Assembly (NCBI GenBank): GCA_965248535.1
Contig: CBDFJR010000002.1
Span: 800,001-864,000 of the forward strand
DNA length: 64,000 bases
Direction of reading: 5' to 3'
Source: Phormidesmis sp.
Lineage (GTDB): Bacteria; Cyanobacteriota; Cyanobacteriia; Leptolyngbyales; Leptolyngbyaceae
Shown here in pieces: positions 11,791 to 31,796 of this stretch. Positions within the stretch are counted from its first letter, which is position 1. Each line of letters opens with the position of its first letter. The position numbers and the translations under genes are program-made. The notes beneath the pieces were generated by a model. That model made no database searches. It saw nothing but the letters and a program-made list of their open reading frames with translations, and had not been told where the DNA came from.

Positions 11791-13347
11791 TTAAGCGTCG
11801 ATTTCTAAGGAACCGATGGGATAGGCCACGCAGGTCAGTGCATAACCCGCTTGCTGATCGGCACTCGTCAAGGCCGCGGGAGAATTTTGATAGCGCACCT
11901 GTCCTTTTTGAATGCTGACTTTACACGCTCCGCAGGCTCCGACTCGACACGCATGGCGCAGTTGAATGCCCTCTTGCTCGGCTGTCTCTAAAATAGAGGT
12001 GCTATCGTCGGCTAAAACCTCTCGATCGGACTTCGTGAAATAGATCACAGACACCGCAGGCTGAGTTGACAGGGGCAGATCTGAGGGAGCATCTTGACCA
12101 TTGCCGAGAGTGTAAAACTTAGACGACAGTGGTTTGATCAGGGTCGCATCCAACTGTCCCCCATCAGAGATTGCAGTTTGGGGTGCAGTGGGCGAGATTG
12201 AGCTTGACGACTGACCCCCAAAGCTTTCTTCTTGATAGTTTTGCATAGGAAATTTTAGGCTTTCTAACAAAGCGCGAATCGCCTGCATAAACCCTTCTGA
12301 GCCACACACATAAGCCGATCGCTCCAGCAGATCGGGGGCCACCATCGGCAACATTGAGGCAGAAATGCGTCCGGTTAGTCCCATCCAAGCCTGTTTGAGG
12401 GAAGGTCGAGTCACGGTGATCGCCAACCGCAAATTAGGCATTTGCGCTGCGATCGCTTCTAACTCGGCGCGAAATACCACATCTTCGGGCGAAGTGGCGC
12501 TGTAGAGGAAAATAATGTCACAGTCTATCAAGGTGTCTTGCAGCCAGCGCAGCATTGACATCATCGGCGTGATGCCGCTTCCGGCAGAAATCAACAGCAG
12601 TTTAGGCGGCACTGTGGGCAAACAGCTAAAACTTCCCATCGGGCCGCCGACGAGCTTAACGCGATCGCCCACTTTAAACTGATCGTGCAGCCAGTTAGAA
12701 ACCAGACCCGGAGACACTTCTGGCTGATCTGGCGGACTGGGCACTCGCTTCACCGTGACGCTCAAGTGATAAGGGCGAGTCGGCGATGAAGAAATCGAGT
12801 AACAGCGCCTCACGGGTTTGTCATCAATCACCATTTCTAAGTTGACAAACTGCCCCGGCTGATAGCAAAACAGCACAGGCGGTTCTGCCACTAGGCAAAA
12901 GGTTTTGACATCGGGAGTTTCGTCAACAATGCGACAACAGCGACAGACTAAATCTTCTGCGACCCAAGGCTGAGTAGGCACTAGGGTAGGAGTCTCGATC
13001 GCCGTTTCAAGACTTGCCGCCGAGATGGGAGCAACTAGGGACTCAATGTGTAAAAATGTCTGCCCAAGCTGAAGCAAATCGCCAGGGTGAAGGGGATGCG
13101 GGTCGTCTATGGGAATCATCTCCCCATTGAGCAGTGAGCCTGATGCGCTGCCGACATCAATAAAATAGTAGGCAGGGTCAAGATAGATAATCCGCCCGTG
13201 CACTCGACTGACTTCGGGATTGGTTAGCACTAGGTCGCAGGTGGTGCTGCGGCCAATCACCCAATCTGTTTGTCCGGGGTAAGATGCTTGAAGCTGATGA
13301 TTTTGAAACTCTCGCTGTTCAAAGTTAACTGATTTCAGGATCAACAT
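11791..13347 (-). CDS. FHA domain + FNR-type FAD/NAD(P)H oxidoreductase + C-terminal [2Fe-2S] ferredoxin (Hcr/PaaE-like)
   Basis: FHA motifs IGR...VSRVHG...GSASGSLLNG; FAD motif RCYSISS; NAD motifs AGSGITP, YVCG and EESFG; ferredoxin motif CRVGACGAC...C. Confidence 0.9.
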   Translation of the reverse strand: MLILKSVNFEQREFQNHQLQASYPGQTDWVIGRSTTCDLVLTNPEVSRVHGRIIYLDPAYYFIDVGSASGSLLNGEMIPIDDPHPLHPGDLLQLGQTFLHIESLVAPISAASLETAIETPTLVPTQPWVAEDLVCRCCRIVDETPDVKTFCLVAEPPVLFCYQPGQFVNLEMVIDDKPVRRCYSISSSPTRPYHLSVTVKRVPSPPDQPEVSPGLVSNWLHDQFKVGDRVKLVGGPMGSFSCLPTVPPKLLLISAGSGITPMMSMLRWLQDTLIDCDIIFLYSATSPEDVVFRAELEAIAAQMPNLRLAITVTRPSLKQAWMGLTGRISASMLPMVAPDLLERSAYVCGSEGFMQAIRALLESLKFPMQNYQEESFGGQSSSSISPTAPQTAISDGGQLDATLIKPLSSKFYTLGNGQDAPSDLPLSTQPAVSVIYFTKSDREVLADDSTSILETAEQEGIQLRHACRVGACGACKVSIQKGQVRYQNSPAALTSADQQAGYALTCVAYPIGSLEIDA

Positions 13348-13434
13348 CGGGATTAACCTCTTGGGTGATGAGCAATTTGCACAGAGTCTGGTTTTGGGAT
13401 CGTGGATTAACGATATTGGTGAATGGCATGGGCC

Positions 13435-13461
13435 AGGGGCACGGCAATGCCATGCCCGTAC
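13435..13461. repeat. REP-like hairpin
   Basis: aggggcacggcaatgccatgcccgtac, between the two redox genes. Confidence 0.6.
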
Positions 13462-13519
13462 ATCGATCTGGGGTCGCCCCGGATATCGATTCGTTTTTTA
13501 ATCCCCGATCGCTAGGGGA

Positions 13520-15214
13520 TTAGACATTCGATTTTTTAGATGGTTTTGCGATCGTTCTAGCCAGGGTGATAGCGCTGTGAAAGGCTTCGGTTGAGGGCTG
13601 AGAGCAGGCGAGAATCTCTGAATTTGTGGCCGCGATCGTCTCGATCGTCGAAAAGTGATCGGCATCGGTTAGCTGCAAATCTTGTCGCAGTTGCCGACAA
13701 AATTCAAAACTGCCAGAGGCACTCATGGTTTGCTGTCGCAGCAAGTCGAGCACAACTCCCGTATAGGTTTGCAGCCGCAATTGTTGAGAGACTCCCTGCA
13801 AAACTTTGACCAGCGTATAGATTTCATCGGGGGTGAGATCATCGAGCGATCGTCCTTCTAAAAGCGCTGGCTCGATCGCCAGCTTTTGCAACTGTTTGCG
13901 GAGGCTAGTGGTCATATTTTCGCGCTCATATTGAGAGCGAGTGCGGCGCATTGTGCGATAGAGCCACAGCGAACCAACCAGAACAATGAGAGCATTAAAC
14001 GCAAACAGGGGATAGTCGGGCAAACGGTTGAGCGAAGGACGAGCACCATAGGAAAAGAACGTCCAAAAAGAGGTGACCGTAAACAGCGTAAACACAATAT
14101 GCTGTGCCTGCTCTTGAGAAATAGCGCGACCTTTTCTAACAATCACTTTGCGACACAGTTTTTCTGCAATCAGCCCCAGCGTGAAAGTGATTGCGATTAA
14201 GACTGCAAACGTGATGAACACTGCAAACGCTTTTGGAATCGGAATGCTGTGCTGATAAAGATAAAACCCAGTGTCGAATGAGTTGGCAACCTGATCGTGT
14301 TCATGAGTCCATGCGCCTGTGAAGTAATAATCCCAGTTGCCCGCATAGAGGAAATAGTATAGATAAAACGCAATCACCATCCCCAAATAGCCATATTGAA
14401 CAAGCCGACGACCGGGTTTATTCAACTCTGTCCAATAAGTCTTTTCGGCATCAATATCAATGCAGGCTGTTTTGCATCCCACGCAGGCACTTTGTTCTCT
14501 GCCCGTTTGGGAGTCAGTGGTGCGACACATCGATTGAGTCACGGCTGCTTTAGGCTTGAGATAATTTTGACTGCCTAGGAGCGATCGTGGCCCCGTGTAA
14601 ACCATCTGCACAGGTGCCATCGGGCAAAAATATTGACACCAGCTTTTGCCCGCATACAAATAGCCCACCAGCATGGCGCAGAGAATCGTCGCGATCAGAA
14701 AGATGCCCAGGGCAAAACGATCGGAGTTGACGTAGAGAATTCGCAGCCCTAACCCCAGCACAAATAGCCCAAACTGAACATAGAGATGGTTGCGCCCTAG
14801 CCAGGAATTTTCCCCGATCGTCACGACCTCCTTTCGCACCTCACCTGTGACCCGATCCACCACTTTTTTTCGTCGCTGAATGCCTAGCGCCCGCGGGATC
14901 TGTGACAAAAAAGAGAGCGGACAAATTCGCCGCCAAAATTCATGGCCAAGCACCAACAGCACAAAAATTGCAGTCGGCACGATCATGGCCCACCAGATCA
15001 GAGCACTCATTGAAAAGGGTGCCTGCGCCAGACACGTCTCTCGAACCTTGACACACTGACTGAGATTGATCCGAAATGGACTGCTGAGATTGTTAGGCTG
15101 AGTCCACGCGATCGTAATAGGGTCATAAAAAAGTGACGCAATTAACACCAGCCAGCCAATGGTTAGCAACCAGCGGACACGGTGCATGGTCTTCTCAGAA
15201 ACTTGTTGCAGCAT
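13520..15214 (-). CDS. Polytopic membrane protein with NapH/CcoG-like Fe-S Cys motifs ('4Fe-4S binding protein')
   Basis: About 8 hydrophobic segments; motifs WRRICP, WCQYFCP, SMC and CVGCKTACIDID; soluble helical C-terminus. Confidence 0.75.
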   Translation of the reverse strand: MLQQVSEKTMHRVRWLLTIGWLVLIASLFYDPITIAWTQPNNLSSPFRINLSQCVKVRETCLAQAPFSMSALIWWAMIVPTAIFVLLVLGHEFWRRICPLSFLSQIPRALGIQRRKKVVDRVTGEVRKEVVTIGENSWLGRNHLYVQFGLFVLGLGLRILYVNSDRFALGIFLIATILCAMLVGYLYAGKSWCQYFCPMAPVQMVYTGPRSLLGSQNYLKPKAAVTQSMCRTTDSQTGREQSACVGCKTACIDIDAEKTYWTELNKPGRRLVQYGYLGMVIAFYLYYFLYAGNWDYYFTGAWTHEHDQVANSFDTGFYLYQHSIPIPKAFAVFITFAVLIAITFTLGLIAEKLCRKVIVRKGRAISQEQAQHIVFTLFTVTSFWTFFSYGARPSLNRLPDYPLFAFNALIVLVGSLWLYRTMRRTRSQYERENMTTSLRKQLQKLAIEPALLEGRSLDDLTPDEIYTLVKVLQGVSQQLRLQTYTGVVLDLLRQQTMSASGSFEFCRQLRQDLQLTDADHFSTIETIAATNSEILACSQPSTEAFHSAITLARTIAKPSKKSNV

Positions 15215-15333
15215 AGGTGTTACCTCTTGTCATAACGGTGAGTGTCACGTCAGCTAGACACGACAAAATGCAAAACTAGAGCAAAATTTATCGATCGACA
15301 ACCCTGCGAAAACGGCAGCCGTCATTAAATTAA

Positions 15334-17298
15334 TTAATGAATCGCTTCATGATTGATTTGCCAAAAACTAACCCGTTGATTTGCATTCCAAGTCACTAAA
15401 TAGTCATGATCGGGACTGAATGCAACATTAGTCGGATGCTCTAATGTTCCTGTCTCTCGCATCGCTAAACTTCCCGATTGAGGAATCCAAGTGCGAACGC
15501 TGCCGTTACCGTGAACGGTCATAATATTGCGATTGCATTTAGAAATGAGAATAGGATTGGCAGAAGCTTCGGGCAAAATCTGAACTAAGACTTCGCGGTT
15601 GAGATCCCACATCAGTCCTCGGTCTTTGCCAAAGCTAATCAGCGTGTGATCATTCACCAGTTGTAAGCCCACGATCGTATCGGTATGCCCCGAAAACGTT
15701 CGGTGAATCTGCCCGGTGCGAAGATCCCAGATTTGAAGCTGGCGATTAGCACAAGGTGCAGCATCACAAGACCCGCGACTGGCTGTGATCAGAGTGTCAG
15801 AAGTCGCGCCATAGGTGAGAGCGGTCACGTCTGCTTGAGAAAAGTTTAAAGTTTGCAGCAGGGTGCCCGTGTTTAAATTCCATTGGCGCAGGGTTCTATC
15901 TTTACTACTACTGACCAATGTTTGTAGATCCGGACTAATTGCGATCGCTGTTACAGACTTTTGATGTCCTCTAAACGTTTGCAGCAATTTTCCTGACGTT
16001 GCATCCCAAAGCTGAAGCGTCCCGTCTTCGCGACCACTGACCAAAACCTTGCTGTTTCGGCTCACTGCTAACGCTGTCACAGGTGCGTTATATCCCGCCA
16101 GTGTCTTGATGCGGATGCCACTGGGCAATGACCACAGCCGCAAAACATGATCGGCTCCGGCGGTGACCATGACTCGATTATCAGGGGCAATCAGCACCCG
16201 CTCGACCCCCGACTTAATCGACATTTCCCGCAGCATGGTTAAATGCCCATCAGACGGAGGAAGAAACTTCTGCTCTAGTTGAGTGAATGCAGATTTAGCC
16301 TGCTGACCATAATCTAGAAACCATCCGCCCACTGCCCCTTTAGAAGCCTGCGAAGCCACCGTTCCGATCAATAACAGCGTGCTGGCAGGCAAAACCAACT
16401 GTTGCACCCATTGATGTTTGCGACGAACCCCTTTTTGAAAACTCTGGGCTGCGGGCAATGTCTGAAGGTCGGTCAAAACCTCTACGGCCTCTTGGTAGCG
16501 ATCGCCGACTCGACTTCGCACCATGCGATTAAGAATCACTAACAGATCGGGAGGAACAGAAGACGACTGTAGATAACGCTGCCAATCTAGCTCCCCAGAG
16601 ATCAAATCTTGCTTAAACTGCCGCGGATCAACCCCCGTCAGCAGATGAATCACCACAATGCCCAACCCATAGAGGTCGCTGCTGATCTGAGCCATTCCCA
16701 GGCGTTGTTCATCGGGCATATAGCCCGGAGTGCCAATTTCAAGGGGCAGCAAGTCAGTGCCAGGTTGCAGACTAGCCTCGGTTTCTGGCAGGCGATCGGC
16801 TGCGCCAAAGTCAATCAAAACCACCTTGCCGTCTCGACGACGACGAATTAAATTGCTAGGTGTAATATCGCGATGGATCACCCGATGCGAATGAATATAG
16901 TTCAAAACAGGCAGCATTTCTAGCAGCAATGCGATCGCCGCCTTAGCAGAAAAGCGCTTTCCGTGAGTTAACCATTGGCTCAAATTTTCACCCTCAATAT
17001 ACTCTTGCACCAGATAGGTTGAATCCGGTTCTTGTTCTTGAACGTAAGCAAAGAGTGTCGGAATTTGCTTGTGATGTTGCCCAAACTGCTCTAACAGATG
17101 AGCCTCTGTCTCAAACAAGCGATGCGCTGTCTCTAGCGAAATCGTGCTGTGTGCGGGCAGTTTAAGACACTTGACAACGCACAGCGGATGTTGAGGAAGA
17201 TATTTGTCGCGAGCCAGATAGGTTTCGCTAAACCCTCCCGCTCCTAGCTTCTCTAAAATCAGGTAGCGTCCAGTTAATAGTTGCCCAATCATGCTCAT
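15334..17298 (-). CDS. Hanks-type Ser/Thr kinase with a hydrophobic linker and C-terminal WD40 repeats
   Basis: Kinase motifs LGAGGFSETY, VVK, HRDITPSN, DFG and GTPGYMP; WD40 repeats (GH...WD/WN). Confidence 0.92.
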   Translation of the reverse strand: MSMIGQLLTGRYLILEKLGAGGFSETYLARDKYLPQHPLCVVKCLKLPAHSTISLETAHRLFETEAHLLEQFGQHHKQIPTLFAYVQEQEPDSTYLVQEYIEGENLSQWLTHGKRFSAKAAIALLLEMLPVLNYIHSHRVIHRDITPSNLIRRRRDGKVVLIDFGAADRLPETEASLQPGTDLLPLEIGTPGYMPDEQRLGMAQISSDLYGLGIVVIHLLTGVDPRQFKQDLISGELDWQRYLQSSSVPPDLLVILNRMVRSRVGDRYQEAVEVLTDLQTLPAAQSFQKGVRRKHQWVQQLVLPASTLLLIGTVASQASKGAVGGWFLDYGQQAKSAFTQLEQKFLPPSDGHLTMLREMSIKSGVERVLIAPDNRVMVTAGADHVLRLWSLPSGIRIKTLAGYNAPVTALAVSRNSKVLVSGREDGTLQLWDATSGKLLQTFRGHQKSVTAIAISPDLQTLVSSSKDRTLRQWNLNTGTLLQTLNFSQADVTALTYGATSDTLITASRGSCDAAPCANRQLQIWDLRTGQIHRTFSGHTDTIVGLQLVNDHTLISFGKDRGLMWDLNREVLVQILPEASANPILISKCNRNIMTVHGNGSVRTWIPQSGSLAMRETGTLEHPTNVAFSPDHDYLVTWNANQRVSFWQINHEAIH

Positions 17299-17621
17299 TA
17301 TCCTTTGTGCGCGGACGTGCTCAAAGGGCTGGTGTCCGCGAAAACCATTAAAAAGCTCGTTGAGATTGCCTAGAAAGACTCAGGAGATTTCCCGCTGAAA
17401 ATTGATCGAAATGCACCTTCCCCAAGTCTGGGAATTCTCAGTTAACGTCCTTTAGTGAATGCTGTGAAGACTTAAGCCAAAGCGGTAGATAAACCTCAGC
17501 CTAACTCCAGTTCATGAATGAATGAGATGTAACTTTGGCTAGATGCTCGTGTAGATTATAACGATTAGCGTCGCTGTTGACCACCCACTCTGCCAAAAAT
17601 CAGCAAAAAGAGAAGGTAAAT

Positions 17622-17657
17622 TAATTAGAACTAGGTCTGATCCCCCTGTTCTAATTA
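17622..17657. promoter_or_regulatory. Palindrome copy 1: TAATTAGAAC-N16-GTTCTAATTA
   Basis: Perfect 10-bp inverted repeat in the divergent kinase/PAS intergenic region. Confidence 0.6.
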
Positions 17658-18254: not shown

Positions 18255-19808
18255 ATGATTTCTACTTTTTGGAATATTCCTGGAATTCAATCTTGCAAGT
18301 CATTAGAGTTCTTAGAGCGATCGCTGACTCCGACAAGCGTGTATGACCAACAAGGACACATGCTTTATGCCAGCCAGAGCTTTTTAGAATTGCTGTTGAC
18401 TCCTGCGCCAACTCGCTTCTTAGATTGTTTTCCATCGACATCCATCGCGTTAATAGAATTGACCAAGGTTTGGGAGCAAGCTCTGCAAGGCGAGACTCCC
18501 CGATTTCTCTCTAAAACCAGAGACGCAGCAGAAACGCTCGAATGTTCCCTTCAGTTTGATCCAGAAGCCAACTTGATGTGGGTCAATGCTAAAAAAATTG
18601 ATGCCGCCGAACGAATTCGCAATCTCACAGAGGCTTATGAACAGGCGATTGCCCGATCTGCTCACGCCAACCTGGCAACAGTTTTGATCAATCCTCAGGG
18701 CGGCATCATTCAGTGCAATCAAAATCTGCACAAGCTTTTAGGAACTAGCGATCGCGATCTCCTCAATCTTGAACAGTTTGTACATCCCGAAGATCGGTTT
18801 ATTGATCAGCCGTTAAAGCAAAATTTGCTCGACGGCAATCTTCATGCCTACACGATCGAAAAGCGGTTTATTTCTAGAAACAACGAGGTTCTGTGGCTGA
18901 ATGTCAATGTCTCCTCGATCGCCATTTCTGCCTGCATTGAAGGACATCAGCGTTATTATGCCGTGCTGTTAGAAGACATTACAGAAAGTAAAAAGATCTA
19001 TAGCACGTTAGTAAGAACCGAAGAAAAGTGGAAAACACTTTTTCTCAATAGCCCTTATTTGTTTATTCAAACTAGCCCCAGCGGCCAAATGATCTATGTG
19101 AGTCCTGCGGTAGAAGACTTGCTGGGCTATCAGCCCGAAGAGTTGCTCGGACGACAGATCAAAGAACTCATTCACCCTAGCAATTTAAACGAGGTAGATC
19201 TGGCTCTCCAGCTATGGAGCAGCAATATTCAAACCCACCAATCCGGCATTGAATGCTGGTGGAGAGCCAAGTCTAACCGATGGGTGTCCCTGTCAATTCA
19301 AGGACAACGGTTTCCTTCGGCGCTAGAAATTGATGGCGTGATCATCAGTGGGCACAATATCACCGATCGTAAGTGTTTAGAAGTAGAACTGAGGGCAAAC
19401 GAAGAGAAGTTTAGATCTCTGGTGCTCAATAGTTTGGGCGTTGTGTTTCGCTGTGATGCAAGCTACATGATGGAGTTTGCTAGCGACGGAATTCAAGACA
19501 TGACCGGGTATCCGGCTTCTGTTTTTGTGAACAATCAGGTGCGATCGTATCTCAGCATTGTTCACCCAGATGACATTATCGTTCTTAAAGATTCACTGAT
19601 TCAAGCGGTTTTAGACCGTCATCGCGGCTCGATCAATTATCGAATTATCGATGCCCAGGGTCAGATTCGCTGGGTCACCGAACGTAAGCAAGGCGTATTT
19701 GACCAGAACGGCAACTTGTTATGGCTTGATGGCGTGCTGCTAGAAGTCAGCGATCGCAAGCCCCTAGAGGCAGAGTTGCGTCGCCGAGAAGCGATCGAGG
19801 GCAATTGA
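18255..19808 (+). CDS. Multi-PAS/PAC sensor protein with no output domain
   Basis: PAS motifs VHPED/IHPSN/VHPDD and PAC ends DITE, NITDRK and EVSDRK. The protein stops shortly after the last PAC. Confidence 0.85.
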   Translation: MISTFWNIPGIQSCKSLEFLERSLTPTSVYDQQGHMLYASQSFLELLLTPAPTRFLDCFPSTSIALIELTKVWEQALQGETPRFLSKTRDAAETLECSLQFDPEANLMWVNAKKIDAAERIRNLTEAYEQAIARSAHANLATVLINPQGGIIQCNQNLHKLLGTSDRDLLNLEQFVHPEDRFIDQPLKQNLLDGNLHAYTIEKRFISRNNEVLWLNVNVSSIAISACIEGHQRYYAVLLEDITESKKIYSTLVRTEEKWKTLFLNSPYLFIQTSPSGQMIYVSPAVEDLLGYQPEELLGRQIKELIHPSNLNEVDLALQLWSSNIQTHQSGIECWWRAKSNRWVSLSIQGQRFPSALEIDGVIISGHNITDRKCLEVELRANEEKFRSLVLNSLGVVFRCDASYMMEFASDGIQDMTGYPASVFVNNQVRSYLSIVHPDDIIVLKDSLIQAVLDRHRGSINYRIIDAQGQIRWVTERKQGVFDQNGNLLWLDGVLLEVSDRKPLEAELRRREAIEGN

Positions 19809-22587: not shown

Positions 22588-23406
22588 TTAGACCAGGGTA
22601 AAATCGGCTGCTGAAAACTTGGATAGATTGGCCAATCCAGTTTCGCCCCGTTGATTATCTAAATTAGCCAACACGCTCACATCTCCACCATTGCTCAGAT
22701 CTTGAGAGTAGGCCAAACGGGTCAACCCCAAGGTCGAGTTGAAGTAAACAAACGCGCCTTCGTGAGCGGTGATCTGATCATTGTTGGCGATCGCACGAGC
22801 CGCCGCCCCTGCTGCCGGAAAGGGATCGGTGAGCACAATTACGTTACTGTCTCCAGCAATCTGAGACGACTGTCCTTTTTGAAACTTGAGGGTGTCAAGG
22901 TTCAGATCAAACTTGTTGAATGCAAATTTATCTTCTCCGATCGTAAAGTCTGAAATCACATCAGGCTGGTTTAGAACATTGATGCCTGTTTTGCCAGCAG
23001 GTGCCGGAATGCCGTTGGCAAACACATCGCCCGTGTAGACAAACTGATCGGCTCCTGCGCCGCCCGTGAGTTGATCGACTCCATTGCCGCCAACCAGCAG
23101 ATCATTGCCCGCATCACCCATGATTAGATCGTTGCCATTGCCGCCTGAGAGCCGATCATTGCCAGTGCCCCCAAACAAGGCATCATTGCCGTTGTCGCCG
23201 GAGAGAAAATCGTTGCCATCATTGCCGAGCAGCAAATCGTTGCCTTCTTTACCTCTAGCAACGTTGTTGGTGGTGTTGCCAACAAACAGATCATTGGTTT
23301 GTGCGGTGCCGTTAAAAGATAAACCATCGGTGGCGCGATTGACGGTAGTGATGTCGTTTAAGAGCGCTAAGACTGTCTGTAGTCCAATTTGGGCGTTAGT
23401 AGTCAT
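22588..23406 (-). CDS. RTX (hemolysin-type Ca-binding) secreted protein
   Basis: Tandem GxxGNDxLx nonapeptides; DVISDFTIGEDK and terminal FSAADFTLV are typical of T1SS substrates. Confidence 0.9.
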   Translation of the reverse strand: MTTNAQIGLQTVLALLNDITTVNRATDGLSFNGTAQTNDLFVGNTTNNVARGKEGNDLLLGNDGNDFLSGDNGNDALFGGTGNDRLSGGNGNDLIMGDAGNDLLVGGNGVDQLTGGAGADQFVYTGDVFANGIPAPAGKTGINVLNQPDVISDFTIGEDKFAFNKFDLNLDTLKFQKGQSSQIAGDSNVIVLTDPFPAAGAAARAIANNDQITAHEGAFVYFNSTLGLTRLAYSQDLSNGGDVSVLANLDNQRGETGLANLSKFSAADFTLV

Positions 23407-23898
23407 GGTGATTTCCTTAAGATTGATTGAACTCTAGAGCGGCTCAAGTCAGCTTATAAACTAGAAGCTGTGGCCACTTGGATTCGGTTGGTTGAAATGA
23501 TCTGAGGGGCGATCGCACTGAGCAAAATCGGCTAACAGCACGAACCCAGCACCCTGCCTTTGCCACCCCTGATAAAGTCTGCCGTTGATCTCGCTTGAAT
23601 GAATCTTTAGGATGGACTGGTCAGACTCAACGAATTAGCTACCCACTCCATGAGTTTACTATGAAGCTTCACTCTATACCAAGGTTAAAGAACTAAATGG
23701 ATTTCTCCAACCTGGTAATCTCAGAACTTTCTAAAGACAGCCTAACTTTTTTATACCTGCCTAAGTTTGCGAGTCTAGAGTGATATCTAGAAAAAAATCG
23801 TCTCAATACTGGGACTATAACGTAATTTTAGCGATCGCATCTAGCGAATTCACTCAGTGTTTGGTGTTTTATTTTTAACCAAAAAGCCGTAATATTGC

Positions 23899-23936
23899 TA
23901 ATTAGAACCCACTGATTTGAGAAATTGTTCTAATTA
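23899..23936. promoter_or_regulatory. Palindrome copy 2: TAATTAGAAC-N18-GTTCTAATTA
   Basis: Perfect 10-bp inverted repeat in the divergent RTX/T1SS intergenic region. Confidence 0.6.
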
Positions 23937-24135: not shown

Positions 24136-24169
24136 TAATTAGAACTTAATTTATGGTTGGTTCTAATTA
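24136..24169. promoter_or_regulatory. Palindrome copy 3: TAATTAGAAC-N14-GTTCTAATTA
   Basis: Perfect 10-bp inverted repeat, followed by TAGACA-N17-TAGCCT (24173-24201), a possible promoter. Confidence 0.6.
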
Positions 24170-24343
24170 GTCTAGACAGGCGGTAGATAGTGTTGTAGCC
24201 TGTGAAACGATGAGGCATTGCCATGATCTAGATTGTTGACTAGTTCATAAAAACTATATGCGTGGTTTCTCAATCTGCTGATTCACCGCGACACACGTTA
24301 GCTGATCAAAAAGATTGTCTATTTGAACATTTGGAACACTTCC

Positions 24344-25135
24344 ATGAGTAGCTGCTTAAAGATTGGTAGTCGCCTGTTAGATGGTGACCAAATTATCTCT
24401 GCTTTAGTTCAATACAAGCTTCTAGAACCGCTAGTTGGGCATCTCTTGTTAGACGAAGTGGTTAAAGAAGTTCCTCTATTAAAACAGGAGGTTTTTCACA
24501 CTCTAGTAGGCGAGAGCGAGACCCCCATACCCGATGACTTTGAGGGTTTTTTAACTCAATGGTGTCAACAAAAGGAGATTGCCCTAGAGTATTTTAAGAC
24601 CGTGATGATGCGCGAGTGGCAACTGCAAAAATTTAAACAACTTCAGTTTGATGATCAAGTAGAGTCAGAGTTTCTTCGCATTAAGTCAGATCTCGATCGA
24701 GTGGAATATTCACTGATTCAGCTTGATGATGGGGCGTTGGCCCAAGAAGTCTATTTTCAGCTTCGAGACGATGGCGTAGAGTTTGCTCAACTTGCCCAAG
24801 CATACTCATTGGGGCGTGAGCGACACGCAGGCGGATTAGTCGGCCCAGTGGCATTTTCGACACTGCCGATCGACGTTGCGGCCTTATTTCATCACCAACA
24901 AACGGGAATAGTTTACGCTCCGGTGCCTGTCGGCGATCGATTTTGGGTAGTGCGACTAGAGCGAGTCATTGCTGCTCGGCTGACTGAGGTAACTCGATCG
25001 GCTGTGGTCGATCGTCTCTATACTCAATGGCTGCAAACGCAAGTTCAAAAAGTGATGGATACACCGGGAGCGATCGCGGTGCAGTCCAATACAACAGAGC
25101 AATCTTTAGAACTCCAACGTGTTCCCTCTGGGTAG
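24344..25135 (+). CDS. Parvulin/PpiC-type peptidyl-prolyl isomerase (T1SS-associated)
   Basis: Motifs LDRVEYSLIQ...AQEVYFQL and FAQLAQAYSLGRERHAGGLVGPV, in the usual position upstream of cyanobacterial hlyB. Confidence 0.85.
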   Translation: MSSCLKIGSRLLDGDQIISALVQYKLLEPLVGHLLLDEVVKEVPLLKQEVFHTLVGESETPIPDDFEGFLTQWCQQKEIALEYFKTVMMREWQLQKFKQLQFDDQVESEFLRIKSDLDRVEYSLIQLDDGALAQEVYFQLRDDGVEFAQLAQAYSLGRERHAGGLVGPVAFSTLPIDVAALFHHQQTGIVYAPVPVGDRFWVVRLERVIAARLTEVTRSAVVDRLYTQWLQTQVQKVMDTPGAIAVQSNTTEQSLELQRVPSG

Positions 25136-25192
25136 CCTTCAATTCCTTAGGAGATGAGATTAACAGAGTTTACAGCGTGAGGATTCGTATCA

Positions 25193-28175
25193 ATGATGCA
25201 AAGTGATGAACGAATGCAATCGTTTCTGACAGATTTTTTTACGGCATGGCTGTTTAAACCTTTGCCCGATCATTTGCGAGGCGCGATCGCGGCAAAACTG
25301 CGGTTGTGTTCTTTTCAGCCGGGGGCGGTGATTTATCCCCCAACCGAGTTGCCGTCAGATGTTCACTTTATTGTGCAGGGAAGCGTGCGGATTCTCGGCG
25401 CTGATTCTCAAAAAAATCCAACGCTGGGGGTGCTAGGGCCGGGCACTGTGATCGGGTGGGATAGCTTGATTCGTCGCGTTGGAGAGGGATCAGTGCGCGC
25501 TGCAATGACTCCTCAGGTCGCCGATCGAGAAGTGTTGACGCTGGCCCTTGCAGCCGATGAATTTGAATCACTGGCCTTAAACTATCTCATGCCTGTGTTG
25601 ATGCAGCAGGTAAGTTTATTAGAACTCTTTGATACTCTGTCTCGTGCGCTGTCGCATTTGCTCGATCCAACCTCTGATCTCGATTTGTCAGAAGTCGTGC
25701 AGTCGATCGATCGAGGACAGTTTGCCGTTGCTCAACATTGGGATGCAGCCATGCCAGAGGCGCGATCGCTGACGCTCTCCGACGATCGTATCTGGCTAGT
25801 CAGCGGAGGTGGAGGGTTGAACTTGCCGATCGGAACTCCGATCACCCACGTCAACCAATTGCAGCAAACTCGTCCGTCTCGATTTCCGGTGCGGTTGTTG
25901 GGACTCGATCGCGTCTGCCTAACCTCAACCCTTCAACAAACTCCGGCAATTCTCGCCCCGATCGAGCCTTCTGCTCCCATTTCTGCCCCTGATGATAAAG
26001 CCTATCCTGCCTGGAAGTCGCGTTCTCTAGAACCGATCGAGGACATTGTAGCGTGCTTTGGAATGGTCTGTGAGCGCCTACAGGTGCCCTATCGTCCCGA
26101 CTCTATGCGCCGCTCACTCAAACAGCAATCGCTCGATCGGTTTAAACCCGTCGATCTGTATATGCGGATTGCTCAAGCGATCGGGCTAAATGCTCAAGTG
26201 ATTAACTTCACGCCTACGGGCGGCGGCATCAATCGGCTGATCACTCCGGCGCTGATTCAGTTTGGGGATGTGTTTGCTGTGCTCTATAGCGTCACACCGA
26301 CCATGACCGTGTTGGGGTCACCCCGAACTGGATTGGTGCGCTTGACTCCCGATCGGTTAGCAGAACGCTTGACGATCGAGTCTCCTTCAGGCTCCGGGGC
26401 AGCGGCTTGTCGAGCGATCGTGCTCGATCGACTTGGTGTCTACGCCGACCAAGCGGTTTGGGTTCCAGCGGTTTGTGCCTATGGTGATCAAACAGCGCGA
26501 TATTTTGGTGCAGGTTCTGCTGGCTTCGATCGTCATTCAACTGTTGAGTTTGGGCAATCCCTTATTAGTGCAGCAGGTAGTCGATAACGTGATTATCGGG
26601 GCCAATGTAGGCGCGATGTCAACGTTTGGAACGTTGATGATTGTGTTTGCACTTCTAGAAGGGGTGTTGACTATTCTGCGGACGCAAATGTTGACCAGCA
26701 CCACCAACCGCATGGATCTGCATCTAGGCGTTGAAATTGTGCGACATCTGCTGCATTTGCCCCTAAAGTTTTTTGAACAGCGTCCAGTCGGAGAGCTAGC
26801 TTCGCGGTTATTAGAATTAGAAAACATTCGTCAATTTATGACAGAGACGGCAATCACTACAGTGATGGATGTCGTGTTTTCGATATTTTATATTGGCGTA
26901 ATGCTTCTTTATAGCACTCGTTTAACGCTGTGCGTTCTGGCGACAGTTCCTATTGTAATTATTTCGACCCTGCTGATGTCTAAAATTCAGCAAAAACTGA
27001 TTCGGGTTAAAGCCGATCAGGGGGCAAAAGTGCAGTCCTATATGGTCGAAGTTTTAAGCGGCATTGCGTCGGTTAAATCTCAGCACATGGAGTCTTTAGT
27101 CGAAGCAACCTGGCGCGATCGCTATGTGCAATATCTGACCAGTGGCTTCACAACCTCAAACATCAACACAGTCTTTTATTCCTATAGTAATTTTCTCAAC
27201 ACAGTCAGCAGTTTGTTGGTGCTGTGGGTCGGTGCCGAACTGGTGCTGAAGGGTGAATTAACTCTGGGTGGACTGATCGCCTTTCGCATTTTGACGGGGT
27301 ATGTGACGGGCCCACTTTTGCGCTTGGCGCGGCTCTGGCAGCGATTTCAAGAAACCTCACTGTCGATGGAACTGCTCGCCGACATTGTAGACTCGCCTGC
27401 CGAAGAAGAGTTATCTCAAGAACAAAAACTGCAAATTCCCCCGATCGTGGGGCGAGTTCAATATCACGAGGTTTGTTTTGGGTTTAACCCAGGGCAACTG
27501 CAATTATCAGAGATTCAGTTAGACATTGCGCCCGGCACCTTTGTCGGCATCGTGGGTCAGAGCGGCTCTGGAAAAAGCACGTTAATGAAACTGTTGCCGC
27601 GTTTATATTTACCTCAGAGCGGCAGCATTACCATTGATGATTATGATGTTTGCAAAGTTGATTTGCACTCTCTGCGATCGCAGGTGGGTGTGGTCTCTCA
27701 AGATGCCGTCTTATTTCAAGGCACGATTCGAGACAACATTGCCCTGTTTGAAAATTTGCCCGATGAGGTGGTGATGGAAGCGGCACGGGTCGCTGATGCT
27801 CACGAGTTTATCATGCAGTTGCCCGATGGCTATGCGACGCAAATTGGCGAACGCGGCGCGGCTCTCTCAGGCGGTCAGCGACAGCGAATCGCGATCGCTC
27901 GCGTCGTGCTTCGCAACCCCCGACTGCTGATTTTTGATGAGGCCACAAGCGCCTTGGATTATGAGACTGAGCGCCGAGTTTGCACCAATTTGATGCAGCG
28001 ATTTCAGGGTCGCACCTGCTTTTTTATCACCCATCGACTGAATACGATCGCCCGCTCAGATTGGATTCTCTTTATGCAGTCTGGCATCATTGCCGAGCAA
28101 GGAACCCATCAAGATTTGATGGCACGTCGTCAACTTTATTACTGCCTCTATGCTCAACAATCACGGCAGCCCTAA
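25193..28175 (+). CDS. hlyB: HlyB-family type I secretion ABC transporter (cNMP-like + C39-like + TMD + NBD); +1 frameshift near 26433 as written
   Basis: N-terminal cNMP-like region and ACFGM segment; NBD motifs GQSGSGKST, LSGGQRQR and DEATSALD. ORFs 25193-26587 and 26433-28175 join if one base is removed from 'cgacttggtg'. Confidence 0.85.
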
Positions 28176-28228
28176 GCAGCCAAAGGATTGTTTACAGAAA
28201 TCACCTATTGCTTGTCTGGAGAAAATCT

Positions 28229-29701
28229 ATGCGTCGTCCTCGATTGTTTGCACCTTTAGGAGCACTGAAAACCCGTTACCGAACCATGCAAGATCAGGTC
28301 GAACAAGATCTGGAAACTAAAGCAACAGGGCTACCCGCCGCTGGCAACTGGACAAAGCGACTGACGCAAGTGATTCTGCTAGGAGTCACGGTTGGGGTTG
28401 GCTGGTCAGTGTTGGCGCGAGTAGATGTGGTCGTCAACGCCAGTGGTAAATTAGAGCCACAGTCCCAGTCTCAAGTGGTGCAGGCGAGAGCAGGCGGAGT
28501 CGTGACGGCGGTGCTAGTGCGCGAAGGTGAATCAGTGAAACAAGGGCAACTGTTGATGCAGTTCGATCGGACATCACTACTCAATCGACTGCAAGAGTTG
28601 TTGCTTCAACGTCAGAGACTGGTGAAAGAAATAGCGGTGCTGCGAGTTGCCCAACAGGGAAAATCATTGCCAACGGCGGGAAAGAGCAATCTTGAGATCT
28701 CACCCGAACTGACGAGCCAGGTGCAGACGCGCTTGCTGTTGGTGGCTCAACTCACCGGAAACCCCAGCAGTCTTGCGCCCGATCAGCTTCGACGATATAA
28801 CCTCTTTCAACAGCAATTGCGCGATCGTCAATCGCTCAGTCAGCTACAAAAGTCCACGTTGCTAACCAAAATAGCTGACTCTGATGCCCAGATTACTCAA
28901 ACTCAGTTTCAGCTACAGCGAGAGCAAGAACTGCTGGCAAATTTGCGCCCATTAGTCCAGCAAGGTGCGATTCCTCGTGTCACCTTGTTGCAGCGTGAAG
29001 TCGGAGTTGGCGATCTGCAAAAACAACTGATCCAGAATCGGCTGCAAAAAGAGCAGGTAGAAATCGGGCAACTGCAAACCAGAGTTGAAGACAGCAAACT
29101 GCTAAATGAAACCCAACAGGATTTGCAAAAACAGTTGGCAGAATTAGATGCCAAATTTGACTCCATTATTAAAGACAATCAGCGCCAGATGATTGAAGTA
29201 GACTCGCAGTTGAATCAAAGTCGGCTTGATCTCAAAAATCAGGGGTTGCGCGCTCCCACCGATGGAGTGGTGTTTGAACTGGGGTCAAAACTGCCGGGTG
29301 CCGTCACTCAGCCCGGTCAGACGCTGCTGCAAGTGGTGCCTAATGAGTCGTTGACAGCACGGGTGCAGGTAGCCAATGCTGATATCGCCAATGTTCGGGT
29401 GGGGATGCCTGTTGATGTTCGCATTGATGCTTATCCCTTCACTGAGTTTGGCTCTGTCAAAGGGGTAATCTCAAAAGTAGGCAGCGAAGCGGTTCCGGTG
29501 AGTCAGCAGTCCCCGCGATCGACCGTTTTCCCCATCGAAGTGCGGCTCGATCGCCAGTTTCTTGAGCGGCGATCGCAGCGATTTTCCCTCACACCGGGCA
29601 TGACCATCACGACTTTGATCAAAGTTCGTCAACGTGCGCCTATTAGTTATGTCACCGAAGAAATCACCAAGGCCTTTGATGGCATTAAATCTGTTCGCTA
29701 G
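28229..29701 (+). CDS. hlyD: HlyD-family membrane fusion protein
   Basis: TM anchor, motifs ASGKLEP and LVREGESVKQGQLL, a long coiled coil, and IDAYPFTEFG. ATG 28229 follows GGAG. Confidence 0.92.
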   Translation: MRRPRLFAPLGALKTRYRTMQDQVEQDLETKATGLPAAGNWTKRLTQVILLGVTVGVGWSVLARVDVVVNASGKLEPQSQSQVVQARAGGVVTAVLVREGESVKQGQLLMQFDRTSLLNRLQELLLQRQRLVKEIAVLRVAQQGKSLPTAGKSNLEISPELTSQVQTRLLLVAQLTGNPSSLAPDQLRRYNLFQQQLRDRQSLSQLQKSTLLTKIADSDAQITQTQFQLQREQELLANLRPLVQQGAIPRVTLLQREVGVGDLQKQLIQNRLQKEQVEIGQLQTRVEDSKLLNETQQDLQKQLAELDAKFDSIIKDNQRQMIEVDSQLNQSRLDLKNQGLRAPTDGVVFELGSKLPGAVTQPGQTLLQVVPNESLTARVQVANADIANVRVGMPVDVRIDAYPFTEFGSVKGVISKVGSEAVPVSQQSPRSTVFPIEVRLDRQFLERRSQRFSLTPGMTITTLIKVRQRAPISYVTEEITKAFDGIKSVR

Positions 29702-29707
29702 CCGAAT

Positions 29708-29791
29708 TAATTGGAACTAGTAATAATTTGGTTCTAATTAATGCAATTTAATTCAAAAAGGGGTTGCCATTCGCTCGAAGTTTGTTATAGT
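29708..29791 (+). promoter_or_regulatory. Palindrome copy 4 (TAATTGGAAC-N13-GTTCTAATTA, 29708-29740) plus a downstream sigma70-like promoter TTGCCA-N16-TATAGT
   Basis: The inverted repeat has 1 mismatch. -35 at 29764-29769; extended -10 TGTTATAGT ends at 29791. Confidence 0.55.
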
Positions 29792-30266
29792 AGTTGCAGG
29801 GCGACGATGGGACTCAGAAGAACTCAAATCTCCACTCTGCCCAAGCGTTTTAACTCTTTTCACTCACCTGCATCTACCGCAGAGATCTTAGCGACATGAT
29901 CGCCCTTAGAACCTTCTAAGCATAGACTCCACAGATTTCTGGGTGATTTTCTTGGCTTGTGCAAGATTGAGACTATTGTTTCTTAAGTCCATGATCACCG
30001 CTTCAGGGTGAAATCAGAGCATAGATTAATTCTGAAACCTTAGCAGGAATCAGATGTGCATAATCACTACTGTTCAATCAGCCTCTAATTTACGAAGTAA
30101 ACCTTTTGTAAATTATGGCAACACCTGCTATCAGAGCTAATCTATCTATCGTTGTTAAAACTGATTTCTACCTGCCAAAAATTGACTGATAAAACTCTAC
30201 ATCAGCCTTGATGTCAGCAGTTTAATCTTTGCAGACTGTCCTTTTTCTTAACCGTTAGGAGCCACT

Positions 30267-31658
30267 ATGGAAGCCTTAGACAACAAAGCTCTGTTAGAAA
30301 AGCAAAACTCGACTGGAATTGCAGATCCGACTCTTGGCACTGCAAACTCTAACCTTTCGACTAGCCAATCAAAAGGCTCTCTGGTGCAAGATGCAACGTT
30401 AGAACGATCGCTCAACAACTCACTCGCAGCCGACGAGCGCGAAACTCTTCCGGCTAACCTAGATGACCACGATCACGCGCCTGTTGTTGGCACTTTTCAG
30501 TTTCACGTCGAGCTAAGTCAAGTTGCCTCTGCTAGAGGGCTTGATGTGAGCAAACTGGTGCGTGAAGATTCCTTCAAAGATAACCTTGGCGCTAAGGGCG
30601 ACTACTTGAACCCCAGAGGTGGCAACAACGTCGTGATTGGGTCGGGTGACAGTGACATTATTCGCGGCACCGGGCGCGGCTTTAACACGATCACCACGGG
30701 CACGGGCAAAGACACGATCATTCTAGGGCCCGAAACGACCAACCGAGTGCTTGACTTTGATGCTGCCAGCGATCGCTTTGTGCTATCGGGACTGAACGCC
30801 AAAAACATCATCATTGCTCAAGGCAAAAACCCCGGTAAGGGAGGACTAGACCAACCTCTTGATTCGGTCAACAATACCCTGATCATTGACAAAAAAACAG
30901 AGCACATTCTTGCATCGTTGCCGTTTGTGAAAGCATCTGATCTGTCTGAAAAGAACTTTGCTCTCAACAGCCGTGAGGCAAACAGCAGCTTGGGAGACCT
31001 CAAAGAGTTAGGCTTTAAAACTCAGCGAGGAGATGGCAAACTCACAGGCACCCAGGGGCACGATCGCTTAATCGGGGGCAGCGGTGATGACTTCCTCTAC
31101 GTGGGCAATGACGGCTTTAAGACGGGGATTGCTAAGGGCACCGGCCCGACCGAGTTTCCTTTTCCTAATGACAGCCCTGGAGTCACAGAACTCAAGACTG
31201 AGCTAAAAGACGGAGTTCTCCGCATTAATGGCACCTACAAAAACTTTGATGCTGCGCCTCTGTTTAGCCAAGGCGAAACCACCATTGATCCTAACGCTAA
31301 GATCCTCAACGGCTCAGATCCTGTGTCGTTGGTAAACAACTTCTTGAAAGTTCCCAAAGATGTTGAGGGCAACCTGCTGTCTGGCACTCACTTGCACTTC
31401 AGCCCCTCTGAAGATAGTCGCGGCAACTTTGCTGATGCAACAGTTGTTCGCTTCTTAACTAACACTCCAACTGATGCCAAGTCGGGCACGATTTCGGGTC
31501 AGTTTAACCTAACTCCAACTGAGCAAGCTGCTTTCTTGGCAGGCGATCTCTATGCCAACGTTCACACCAACATTGATCTCGATAAGGATGGTAGAGCCGG
31601 ATTCCCCACCGGAGAAAACCGCGTCAACTTCAACAAAAATGTTGTGCAGTTTGTCTAA
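30267..31658 (+). CDS. RTX-repeat protein with a C-terminal CHRD domain
   Basis: GxGxD repeats; CHRD motifs THLH...LYANVHT...FPTGENR; DLDKDG Ca-loop. RBS AGGAG. Confidence 0.82.
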   Translation: MEALDNKALLEKQNSTGIADPTLGTANSNLSTSQSKGSLVQDATLERSLNNSLAADERETLPANLDDHDHAPVVGTFQFHVELSQVASARGLDVSKLVREDSFKDNLGAKGDYLNPRGGNNVVIGSGDSDIIRGTGRGFNTITTGTGKDTIILGPETTNRVLDFDAASDRFVLSGLNAKNIIIAQGKNPGKGGLDQPLDSVNNTLIIDKKTEHILASLPFVKASDLSEKNFALNSREANSSLGDLKELGFKTQRGDGKLTGTQGHDRLIGGSGDDFLYVGNDGFKTGIAKGTGPTEFPFPNDSPGVTELKTELKDGVLRINGTYKNFDAAPLFSQGETTIDPNAKILNGSDPVSLVNNFLKVPKDVEGNLLSGTHLHFSPSEDSRGNFADATVVRFLTNTPTDAKSGTISGQFNLTPTEQAAFLAGDLYANVHTNIDLDKDGRAGFPTGENRVNFNKNVVQFV

Positions 31659-31760: not shown

Positions 31761-31796
31761 AGTTGATATCAGAACTCATTTTTCGTGGAGGTCACT

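Follow-up and report, generated by a model that had tools for sequence, protein, structure and literature searches.

A block of about 20.5 kb in a Phormidesmis genome (roughly 11.8–32.3 kb of the window) combines a type I secretion system (T1SS) and its candidate cargo with a kinase-headed redox operon, and a private inverted repeat lies in its intergenic regions. The window is the whole stretch of DNA that was analyzed, 64,000 nucleotides (nt) at positions 800,001–864,000 of contig CBDFJR010000002.1 (GCA_965248535.1, Phormidesmis sp.). It has a GC content of about 0.50, is cyanobacterial in character, and comes from a genome of 5,028,601 bp (5.03 Mb). The sequence comparisons below indicate that the block is very probably a real co-inherited system with a dedicated cis-element, and that this element is probably a protein operator. 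Judged from the genomes compared, the system is accessory and belongs to thin filamentous cyanobacteria.

A first-pass annotation, made from the DNA letters, had named the gene content of the block. The open reading frame (ORF) listing and the Pfam and NCBIfam matches bear it out. The genes are as follows (aa, amino acids).

11791..13347, minus strand: FHA-FNR-[2Fe-2S] reductase, 518 aa, last gene of the redox operon (FHA, FAD_binding_6, NAD_binding_1 and Fer2)
13520..15214, minus strand: candidate membrane Fe-S protein, 564 aa, NapH/NosR/CcoG-like by motifs only
15334..17298, minus strand: Ser/Thr kinase with a C-terminal WD40 propeller, 654 aa, first gene of the redox operon (Pkinase 1.1e-30, WD40 2.3e-31)
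18255..19808, plus strand: PAS-only protein, 517 aa, candidate sensor partner (three PAS matches, no output domain)
19996..21357, plus strand: 453-aa orphan of no family, candidate operator-binding regulator
21522..22388, minus strand: 288-aa helical protein with a hydrophobic N-terminus, probable start ATG 22286
22588..23406, minus strand: RTX protein RTX272, 272 aa, candidate T1SS cargo (HemolysinCabind 1.9e-20, three stretches)
24323..25135, plus strand: PpiC/SurA-like protein, 270 aa, first gene of the T1SS operon (weak Rotamase match)
25193..28175, plus strand: T1SS ABC transporter with cNMP-binding, inactive C39-like, transmembrane (TMD) and nucleotide-binding (NBD) domains, split (ABC_membrane and ABC_tran)
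28229..29701, plus strand: HlyD-type membrane-fusion protein (ORF opens at 27980, probable start ATG 28229)
30267..31658, plus strand: RTX-CHRD protein, 463 aa, candidate main cargo (HemolysinCabind 2.2e-5, CHRD 7e-4)
31785..32348, plus strand: DUF2808 protein with a signal-peptide-like N-terminus (PF10989 2.7e-14)

The inverted repeat and the genes it accompanies

A k-mer comparison of the intergenic regions gave a repeat of two 10-bp arms, TAATTAGAAC-N13-18-GTTCTAATTA, at four sites in three intergenic regions. The 10-bp inverted repeat reported in the first-pass annotation is thus real and intergenic, but it is not a contiguous palindrome, because its arms lie 13–18 bp apart. The sites, to which no strand is assigned, are these.

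17622..17657: operator site 1, TAATTAGAAC-N16-GTTCTAATTA, perfect, in the kinase/PAS divergent intergenic region
23899..23936: operator site 2, N18, perfect, on the RTX272 side of the RTX272/T1SS divergent intergenic region
24136..24169: operator site 3, N14, perfect, on the T1SS side
29708..29740: operator site 4, TAATTGGAAC-N13-GTTCTAATTA, one mismatch, ahead of RTX-CHRD

All seven window copies of the 10-mer fall within these four sites. The perfect repeat occurs at three places in the 5,028,601-bp genome, all in the cluster, and the reversed-pattern control gave 0. Allowing up to three mismatches, there are seven matches genome-wide, four of them in the cluster, and the half-site has 13 copies genome-wide, with seven in the cluster. 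The four sites would serve all five transcription units only if site 1 acts for both divergent operons.

Two other motifs were rejected as the shared element. HIP1 (GCGATCGC) occurs 69 times in the window against 1.8 expected, mostly inside genes, and is found genome-wide. A second motif, ATCTACCGC, has three window copies, all in repeat-bearing intergenic regions, but 36 copies genome-wide against about 38 expected; it is conserved in the kinase leader only. Elsewhere in the same genome, an identical 30-nt sequence, TAACTAGAAC-N10-GTTCTAGTAA, stands at C2:7318-7347 and C5:990890-990919 as reverse complements. This sequence is operator-like with a shorter spacer.

The first-pass annotation had named absence of the palindrome from orthologous loci as a sign against a shared system. 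In all 10 loci compared, the Egbenema and Oculatella records among them, the equivalent intergenic regions carry the repeat. Site 1 has an orthologue in all 10 loci and site 4 in six. Across relatives the consensus is TAAYTRGAAC-N13-18-GTTCYARTTA.

The repeat also follows genes that have left the cluster. The G022 cluster has an inverted secretion half, and in G018 the RTX-CHRD gene is relocated; in each case the repeat has gone with its gene. The repeat is found upstream of an RTX-CHRD gene 1.3 Mb from the cluster in G355, upstream of both unlinked paralogues in G119, and in three of the four stretches fetched from G148. The unlinked RTX-CHRD gene of Egbenema has the repeat 428 nt away, upstream. 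The complete Egbenema genome (7.5 Mb) holds three sites, which lie at kinase/orphan, upstream of RTX-CHRD, and upstream of a GT2/PhzF pair. The last of these (G415 C1:4814474-4814508) is about 440 nt upstream of the GT2 glycosyltransferase and PhzF-like genes, which may be extra regulon members.

Neighborhood comparison and phylogenetic profiling had been proposed in the first-pass annotation, and they gave synteny across genera and full co-occurrence. The orphan was found in nine of 40 sampled relatives, all of the window's family, and the whole block is syntenic in five of these at 42–94% amino-acid identity. Named records with the block are from Phormidesmis, Leptolyngbya, Oculatella and Egbenema; the list of orphan homologues adds Stenomitos, Tildeniella, Thermocoleostomius and others, and among its Leptolyngbya entries are the strains NIES-2104 and NIES-3755. 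For the profile, 401 genomes of the class were searched at E<=1e-10; they are related to one another and form a single sample and no census. Here the orphan occurs in 30 of 401 genomes: 13 of 39 from family f1 and the window's own genome, 16 of 39 from family f16, and 0 of 322 from other families. RTX-CHRD occurs in 37 of the 401. The membrane protein family is matched in 187 of 401, with orthologues of at least 690 bits in 36 and a widespread paralogue at 45–50% identity. Every one of the 30 orphan genomes also holds the membrane Fe-S orthologue (at least 690 bits) and an RTX-CHRD homologue, and in 20 of the 30 all three are on one contig within 30 kb.

Two further cluster types were found beside the window's own (type 1). 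Type 2 is paralogous and present in G183 and G202. It has the same genes at 28–57% identity, namely RTX-CHRD, kinase, membrane protein, reductase, rotamase-like, cNMP-ABC, HlyD, 288-aa protein, PAS and orphan. Type 3, in G362 (two copies), G293, G333 and G210 C2, has the secretion, cargo and redox genes and no PAS or orphan gene. The G317 locus is type-1-like by sequence, yet it lacks the orphan and PAS genes, and the stretch fetched from G012 holds the redox trio only. Overall, the three types show 28–82% identity. The same composition is kept in three divergent lineages, which is our main argument that the secretion and redox parts belong together. In its proposal of one co-regulated system, the first-pass annotation is strongly supported on co-inherited units with a shared private cis-element, as judged by synteny, by the 30 of 30 co-occurrence, by the three types and by a repeat that follows dispersed genes.

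What may bind the repeat

The operator goes with the orphan gene. Of 21 stretches taken from genomes with the orphan, 20 hold at least one operator match. For seven cluster copies, the sequence fetched (about 190 kb) includes neither an orphan nor a PAS gene, and a scan allowing <=1 mismatch gave 0 matches there. When the membrane-protein tree is rooted with the long paralogues (FastTree support 0.76–1.0), the orphan/operator state switches at least three times: G317 falls inside type 1, G012 pairs with G148, and type 2 is nested among type-3 copies. G317 has an operator-like sequence with two mismatches at the place expected for site 1 (C250:6403-6433, 430 nt upstream of its kinase gene), perhaps the relic of a decaying operator.

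The type 2 clusters carry a diverged operator, TAAYTGGA-c...TCCARTTA, with three sites in 30 kb and four in 40 kb. It was found with a shorter-core scan that does not require the GAAC/GTTC core. The same scan of the window's own 5 Mb gave nine matches, four of them the cluster's own and five outside it. The element thus co-diverges with the cluster. The PAS-only gene adjoins the orphan in cluster types 1 and 2. Egbenema has the orphan and the operator and no PAS-only orthologue, which, together with the pattern of presence and absence, shows that the repeat tracks the orphan and not the PAS gene. Neither the block nor its immediate flanks in the window contain a DNA-binding gene; the closest one, of the MerR family, is about 16 kb beyond the right end of the block. 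We therefore regard the orphan as the best candidate for the operator-binding factor, a proposal from sequence to which we give an even chance. The first-pass annotation did not contain this hypothesis, which is new here.

The orphan belongs to no described family. Of its 164 homologues, 120 are listed; these are all named "hypothetical protein" at source and lack Pfam domains. The orphan itself has no Pfam, NCBIfam or PADLOC match. Its profile matched 17 representative clusters in 1.84 billion proteins, and ten distant family members are likewise without Pfam domains. The AlphaFold2 model (mean predicted local distance difference test (pLDDT) score 74, 42-row alignment) shows two confident domains. 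An N-terminal helical region is followed by a beta-rich domain (about 106–260) and an alpha/beta domain (about 315–445), with a disordered linker joining the domains. The beta-rich domain holds the invariant motifs KKDYSY and RRRKPK. The best VIA match (Z = 6.6) is on a helical hairpin, and the best Protein Atlas score was 0.89 with about 80 shared features, below the reliability marks. A predicted complex of the PAS protein with orphan residues 45–453 scored 0.00 against a mark of 0.32, which speaks neither for nor against binding.

The operator could instead be bound by a regulator from outside the cluster, for example a conventional helix-turn-helix (HTH) protein. The orphan and PAS proteins would then carry out a signaling or enzymatic step and share only the history of the cluster. 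Two points discussed among the objections below, the orphan's lack of a DNA-binding fold or family and the correlative nature of its link to the operator, fit this alternative. Other cluster proteins are also possible binders, given the weakly winged-helix-like C-terminal domain of the membrane protein. However, a cluster-encoded factor would fit an operator that is private genome-wide and diverges with cluster type, no DNA-binding gene is found in or next to the block, and the presence of the operator changes with the orphan at least three times. In addition, the G210 genome has the orphan, yet its orphan-less type-3 copy lacks the operator. An outside regulator is therefore unlikely, while still deserving consideration.

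The repeats might also be RNA or single-strand hairpins (terminators, processing sites or attenuators). If transcribed, all four sites fold (−8.6 to −14.1 kcal/mol, z −3.0 to −6.8), which is trivial for any inverted repeat. The loop length is variable with conserved arms, and site 4 starts 7 nt past the hlyD stop codon. The 37 distinct type-1 sites argue otherwise. Their spacers measure 13 bp in six sites, 14 in eight, 15 in 12, 16 in seven, 17 in one and 18 in three, and the variable arm positions (Y at 4, R at 6) assort independently. Of 370 positions, 327 are Watson–Crick complementary, where shuffling gives 324.4 on average (sd 3.3) and 569 of 2000 shuffles reach the observed value; there is thus no covariation beyond independent half-sites. 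G.T and A.C arm combinations are equally frequent, with 17 each, so neither strand is favored. No T-run is present, and a search of the window from 11 to 33 kb against Rfam families gave two chance-level matches only.

The position of the repeat is the remaining point against hairpins. Flank alignments place it directly upstream of conserved sigma-70-like −35/−10 elements at three sites, in DNA predicted to be untranscribed, and beside a conserved block at the fourth. The features concerned are these.

17555..17583, minus strand: predicted kinase-operon promoter TGGTCA-17-TATAAT, the best minus-strand promoter-like match (10/12)
23651..23763, minus strand: conserved block of about 110 nt in the RTX272 leader, beginning GTATAAAAA, shared across genera
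23865..23885, toward RTX272: conserved TTTTGGTTAAAAATA block beside operator site 2
24173..24201, plus strand: predicted T1SS-operon promoter TAGACA-17-TAGCCT, abutting operator site 3
29764..29791, plus strand: predicted RTX-CHRD promoter TTGCCA-16-TG-n-TATAGT, the best plus-strand match (10/12), extended −10

The −35 and −10 of the kinase operon are kept in the 10-locus alignment, and the predicted RTX-CHRD promoter is kept in six loci. It is this conservation of particular hexamers that points to promoters, and the start sites are predicted. The repeat position and the absence of arm covariation together favor two copies of a protein half-site over a hairpin, which we consider improbable. 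The RTX272 leader block (23651–23763) has the pattern GTATAAAAA...GTTCTGAGATT..CAGGTTGGCTAAATCC... and may be the true promoter or a second protein site; no conserved RNA structure was found in it (−2.8 kcal/mol, five pairs).

A further alternative is that two or three independent modules, the T1SS with its cargo and the kinase/redox genes, are neighbors by chance, or lie in one genomic island, and do not function jointly. The three marker genes lie apart (not within 30 kb on one contig) in 10 of the 30 orphan genomes, the membrane protein and reductase also form a stand-alone pair in the window's own genome, and the stretch fetched from G012 has the redox trio only. Set against this are the composition that three types at 28–82% identity keep, the co-occurrence of both markers with the orphan (30 of 30 and 30 of 30), and one operator ahead of the redox operon and of the secretion and cargo units, also after dispersal. 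Independent modules thus seem quite improbable.

The secretion and redox operons and the surroundings of the block

The PpiC/SurA-like gene that opens the T1SS operon is kept in all cluster types. Its Rotamase match (E=8.3e-4) is just below cutoff, and a match to the peptide-maturation-related model TIGR04500 (1.9e-7) is also below cutoff. The ABC gene consists in the window of two overlapping ORFs in different frames. The orthologue is a single 997-aa frame with a cNMP-binding domain (40–125), a C39-like domain (290–394), TMD and NBD. Relative to three orthologues, one extra base near 26431–26435 splits the window gene, and all contigs covering this position in three public runs are without the extra base. 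The frameshift is therefore probably an assembly error or strain-specific. The C-terminal 580-aa ORF matches the HlyB model TIGR01846 at E=3.8e-180 and 600.6 bits, below the full-length cutoff of 725.55 because the N-terminal part sits in the other ORF. The "hlyB" of the first-pass annotation is accordingly an exporter of the HlyB subfamily, with the addition of the N-terminal cNMP-binding and inactive C39-like domains. The Peptidase_C39 match is below cutoff (E=0.014). With the catalytic positions placed from the C39 consensus, all 10 aligned sequences lack the His, and C, T or A stands at the position of the Cys.

HlyD reaches 222.6 bits with TIGR01843 against a cutoff of 208.65. Its homology begins at residue 57–89 of the long ORF, and a GGAG lies 8 nt before ATG 28229. 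A TolC-like gene is unlinked (PF02321, two repeats in a 622-aa frame at C5:1620992-1622224) and is a candidate partner only.

The presumed main cargo, RTX-CHRD, belongs to a family in which HemolysinCabind is found in 11 of 13 members. The CHRD label given earlier falls below threshold in the window copy (20.9 versus 24.1 bits) and holds for the family, where PF07452 is matched in 13 of 13 members (E<=0.01, best 5.4e-08). His residues at 375, 377 and 433 are invariant. RTX272 has no Cys. The 288-aa protein had been called TPR-like, a label that we drop: its only matches are EAD11 (E=0.0012) and ARM-repeat (E=0.087). It is present in all three cluster types, and homology in relatives starts near residue 34.

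The same T1SS operon could be read as an exporter of double-glycine bacteriocins (SurA, long C39-ABC and HlyD type) whose cargo is not the RTX proteins; its organization fits groups I, II and VI of Wang et al. 2011 (PMC3140520), and weak NCBIfam matches to peptide-maturation and NHLP-export models agree, but the missing C39 His (10 of 10), the unconserved Cys, the sub-cutoff Peptidase_C39 match, leaders without conserved small ORFs, and RTX and RTX-CHRD genes as conserved neighbors under the same operator make this highly improbable. In the leaders, a tblastx comparison of seven intergenic regions with nine loci gave no conserved stop-free small ORFs; its matches hold stops in all frames, and very short or fast-evolving peptides could escape it.

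In the redox operon, the reductase has a Pfam FHA match of 3e-17. Its nearest NCBIfam models are of the GbcB/PDR type and below cutoff (GbcB 5.8e-96, 321.5 bits against a cutoff of 500), so no equivalog is assigned. It also matches the FHA model of TagH from the type VI secretion system (T6SS) at 5e-13, below that model's cutoff. Residues R33, S47, H50 and N74 of the FHA domain are present, together with RCYS181 (FAD), GSGITP256 (NAD(P)H) and C467, C472, C475 and C506 (2Fe-2S). The FAD, NAD(P)H and Cys motifs are kept in 21 of 21 homologues (RAYT in one copy). The FHA residues are all kept in 19 of the 21; two type-2 copies have Asn instead of His.

The membrane protein has six predicted transmembrane helices and the Cys motifs C98-P, C193-x3-C197-P, C230 and C244-x2-C247-x3-C251, and nine Cys are invariant in 18 homologues. 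The CX3CP and Cys-rich cluster motifs are those that we take to define the Fer4_5 polyferredoxin family. Fer4_5 is the only family matched, at E=0.0037; the score of 17.6 bits is below the cutoff of 22, which two long-form paralogues pass with 24.5 and 22.8 bits. No PDB sequence match and no Foldseek match at E<=0.001 were found, and VIA lists the C-terminal helical domain only. The matches of this domain are weakly winged-helix-like (Z 5–7.4) and serve as a lead only. The long paralogue (about 920–950 aa) is widespread in cyanobacteria and combines the membrane Cys-motif domain with a C-terminal cNMP-binding domain. We know of no described function for it. A fusion of membrane protein and reductase was ruled out for this paralogue, since its C-terminal extension holds the cNMP-binding domain. 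The window's own genome has a second membrane Fe-S and FHA-FNR-ferredoxin gene pair at 44% identity (C5:2226069-2229475), which adjoins a Crp-like HTH gene and contractile-injection-system genes (Pvc16_N, sheath).

The kinase of the window has the Gly-loop, K43, D144, N149 and DFG163. Wherever these positions align, the 24 cluster copies retain K43, D144 and DFG, and all but three retain N149. The catalytic loop reads HRDITPSN (K to T) in the window's clade and HRDIKPSN in most orthologues. No PP2C domain was found in the cluster ORFs; the rest of the genome was not searched. An anti-phage defense system was considered with PADLOC and rejected, as only a generic kinase domain (PD-T4-6, mad6) and an ABC ATPase domain matched; nine of 11 cluster proteins had no match.

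The left boundary of the block is fixed by G001, a cluster-free and nearly complete genome from the same genus, in which synteny with the window stops just past a permease gene. G001 was rejected as an "empty site", as the window's right flank is not adjacent there, and it serves for the left boundary only. On the right, the DUF2808 gene adjoins RTX-CHRD in four other loci (G003, G022, G355, where the copy is unlinked, and G317), so the boundary should take in DUF2808 (31785–32348).

Beyond the block, three small genes at 32413–34367 (170, 136 and 263 aa) match no family. The 263-aa protein shows 74–78% identity across genera, and the three genes recur beside cluster parts in four genomes, including the G018, G341 and G148 loci. 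A 2100-aa multidomain sensor at 34644–40946 (plus strand), directly right of the block, has Ser/Thr kinase, AAA_16/STAND, GAF, PAS and histidine kinase domains. At 61687–63655, acetyl-CoA synthetase appears as two adjacent ORFs (N- and C-terminal halves), and at 5396–7605 the ORF of a ClC-type channel spans only 254–345 of a 346-position model; both may reflect further frameshifts of the assembly. A GC-rich palindrome family, GGGCAYGGCA-N2-3-TGCCRTGCCC, lies at 11685–11751, 13437–13457, 8959–8990 and 61646–61677 as well as genome-wide, with 664 half-site matches (<=1 mismatch) against about 297 expected. It is REP-like or terminator-like in look and unrelated to the cluster operator.

Proposed mechanism and comparison with known systems

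The core of the system, present in all three cluster versions, has three parts. The T1SS operon encodes the PpiC-like protein, the ABC exporter with its cNMP-binding and inactive C39-like domains, and HlyD, with the outer-membrane channel encoded elsewhere. The likely cargo is RTX-CHRD, with its DUF2808 neighbor, the small RTX protein and the putatively exported helical protein. The redox operon encodes the WD40 Ser/Thr kinase, the six-helix membrane protein and the NAD(P)H-type FHA-FNR-[2Fe-2S] reductase. Two of the three versions have a regulatory add-on, which consists of the orphan, usually with its PAS-only partner, and the private operator upstream of each unit's promoter.

In the mechanism that we propose, the operator is recognized by the orphan, which is probably dimeric and has flexibly linked domains; the four promoters would thereby be switched together, and the PAS protein would provide the signal input of the orphan. 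The kinase would make a phosphothreonine mark that is read by the FHA domain of the reductase. This reading would gate an electron path that starts at NAD(P)H, passes FAD and 2Fe-2S and ends at the membrane Fe-S protein, while the cNMP-gated T1SS would export Ca-binding CHRD proteins. As a whole, this is the explanation that we favor, and we consider it reasonably likely. DNA binding by the orphan, co-expression, secretion, phospho-gating, electron transfer and a metal or mineral role are all predictions of it.

Several observations weigh against this explanation. The orphan has no recognizable DNA-binding domain, Foldseek gave nothing at E<=0.001, and there is no PDB sequence match. Its link to the operator is a correlation among related genomes, and a co-inherited factor encoded elsewhere is possible. 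Co-regulation is argued solely from the logic of the cis-element. G003 has no detectable site 2, and an RTX-CHRD paralogue stretch of an orphan-bearing genome (G148 C26) is without the operator. Sites of a classical dimeric regulator do not usually vary so much in arm spacing (13–18 bp) or in the distance from repeat to −35 (3 to about 38 bp), and the regional total of promoter-like matches is 12 against 14.0 expected from shuffles, with no enrichment. The membrane Fe-S assignment comes from motifs and a sub-threshold Pfam match, and its cluster-binding loop is modeled at pLDDT <50 (215–257). Finally, Hanks-type kinases usually carry a catalytic-loop Lys, where the kinase of the window's clade has Thr.

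Most cyanobacterial T1SS substrates and bacterial CHRD proteins generally have, to our knowledge, no assigned function. A metal or mineral function for the present system is doubtful. Polyviou et al. 2018 (PMC5776111) report that Trichodesmium RTX/CHRD genes respond to iron and to contact with dust. These genes are the only outside support for such a role, and they share the domain combination with the window genes, a likeness that is not evidence of kinship. A bolder version, which we consider speculative and rather improbable, is that the orphan, without recognizable likeness to known DNA-binding folds, represents a new class of sequence-specific DNA-binding regulator at TAAYTRGAAC half-sites of flexible spacing. 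With the PAS protein it would turn on a system in which CHRD-RTX proteins leave through the cNMP-gated T1SS and capture Fe or Cu from minerals or surfaces, and in which the kinase/FHA-gated chain from NAD(P)H to the membrane Fe-S protein reduces the metal for uptake. If this is true, thin filamentous cyanobacteria of soils, crusts and ice would have a protein-based counterpart of siderophore or hemophore systems that is specific to them.

The analysis defines a testable unit confined to ecologically important and little-studied filamentous cyanobacteria: its gene set is fixed, four promoters are predicted for it, its half-site measures 10 bp, and a candidate regulator is named. Natural clusters with and without the orphan and operator give clean genetic predictions. 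Should the orphan prove to bind the operator, it would add a new family of DNA-binding proteins. A functional tie between the redox operon and secretion, if real, would be an uncommon case of a Ser/Thr-kinase/FHA switch acting on an electron-transfer enzyme alongside protein export. In the literature on cyanobacterial T1SS with CHRD and RTX, and on FHA with ferredoxin, kinase and WD40, the combination was not found described.

The secretion part is closest to the HlyB/HlyD/TolC T1SS. It shares with this system an ABC protein of the HlyB subfamily with an inactive C39-like domain, a HlyD above cutoff, an unlinked TolC-like gene and adjacent RTX proteins. The cluster exporter differs in its extra N-terminal cNMP-binding domain and in the PpiC-like gene ahead of it. 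The cargo has a C-terminal CHRD domain, the operon is linked to the kinase/redox operon and the private operator, and export is predicted. Gene sets of cyanobacteria with SurA, long C39-ABC and HlyD are read as bacteriocin clusters by Wang et al. 2011 (PMC3140520). These have the same three-gene layout as the present secretion operon, whereas the cluster has no peptidase dyad and no precursor peptides were found in it, and its neighbors are RTX/CHRD genes and the redox operon.

A putative Hanks-type kinase gene beside an FHA-protein gene in a secretion-linked cluster recalls PpkA/Fha1-type control of the T6SS. There, threonine phosphorylation by a kinase and an FHA protein controls secretion. 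Here the FHA domain is fused to an FNR-ferredoxin reductase and is not a scaffold, secretion is of type I, and the cluster ORFs have no PP2C.

The HasA-type hemophore is a T1SS-secreted scavenger protein with dedicated regulation. By analogy of function, the cluster resembles such systems in having a small, putatively T1SS-exported binding protein encoded with its presumed exporter under dedicated control; unlike them, it has no receptor or TonB gene.

The membrane protein compares best with the NapH/NosR/CcoG polyferredoxins, of which CcoG is described as a cupric reductase. The likeness lies in the multi-helix membrane architecture, the CX3CP motif, the Cys-rich cluster-type motif and Fer4_5 as the sole Pfam match. 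The cluster protein differs in scoring below cutoff, in having one CX2CX3C only, and in matching no solved structure by fold or sequence. It is further set apart by its widespread paralogue, which carries its own cNMP-binding domain, and by its partner, a dedicated FHA-FNR-ferredoxin reductase.

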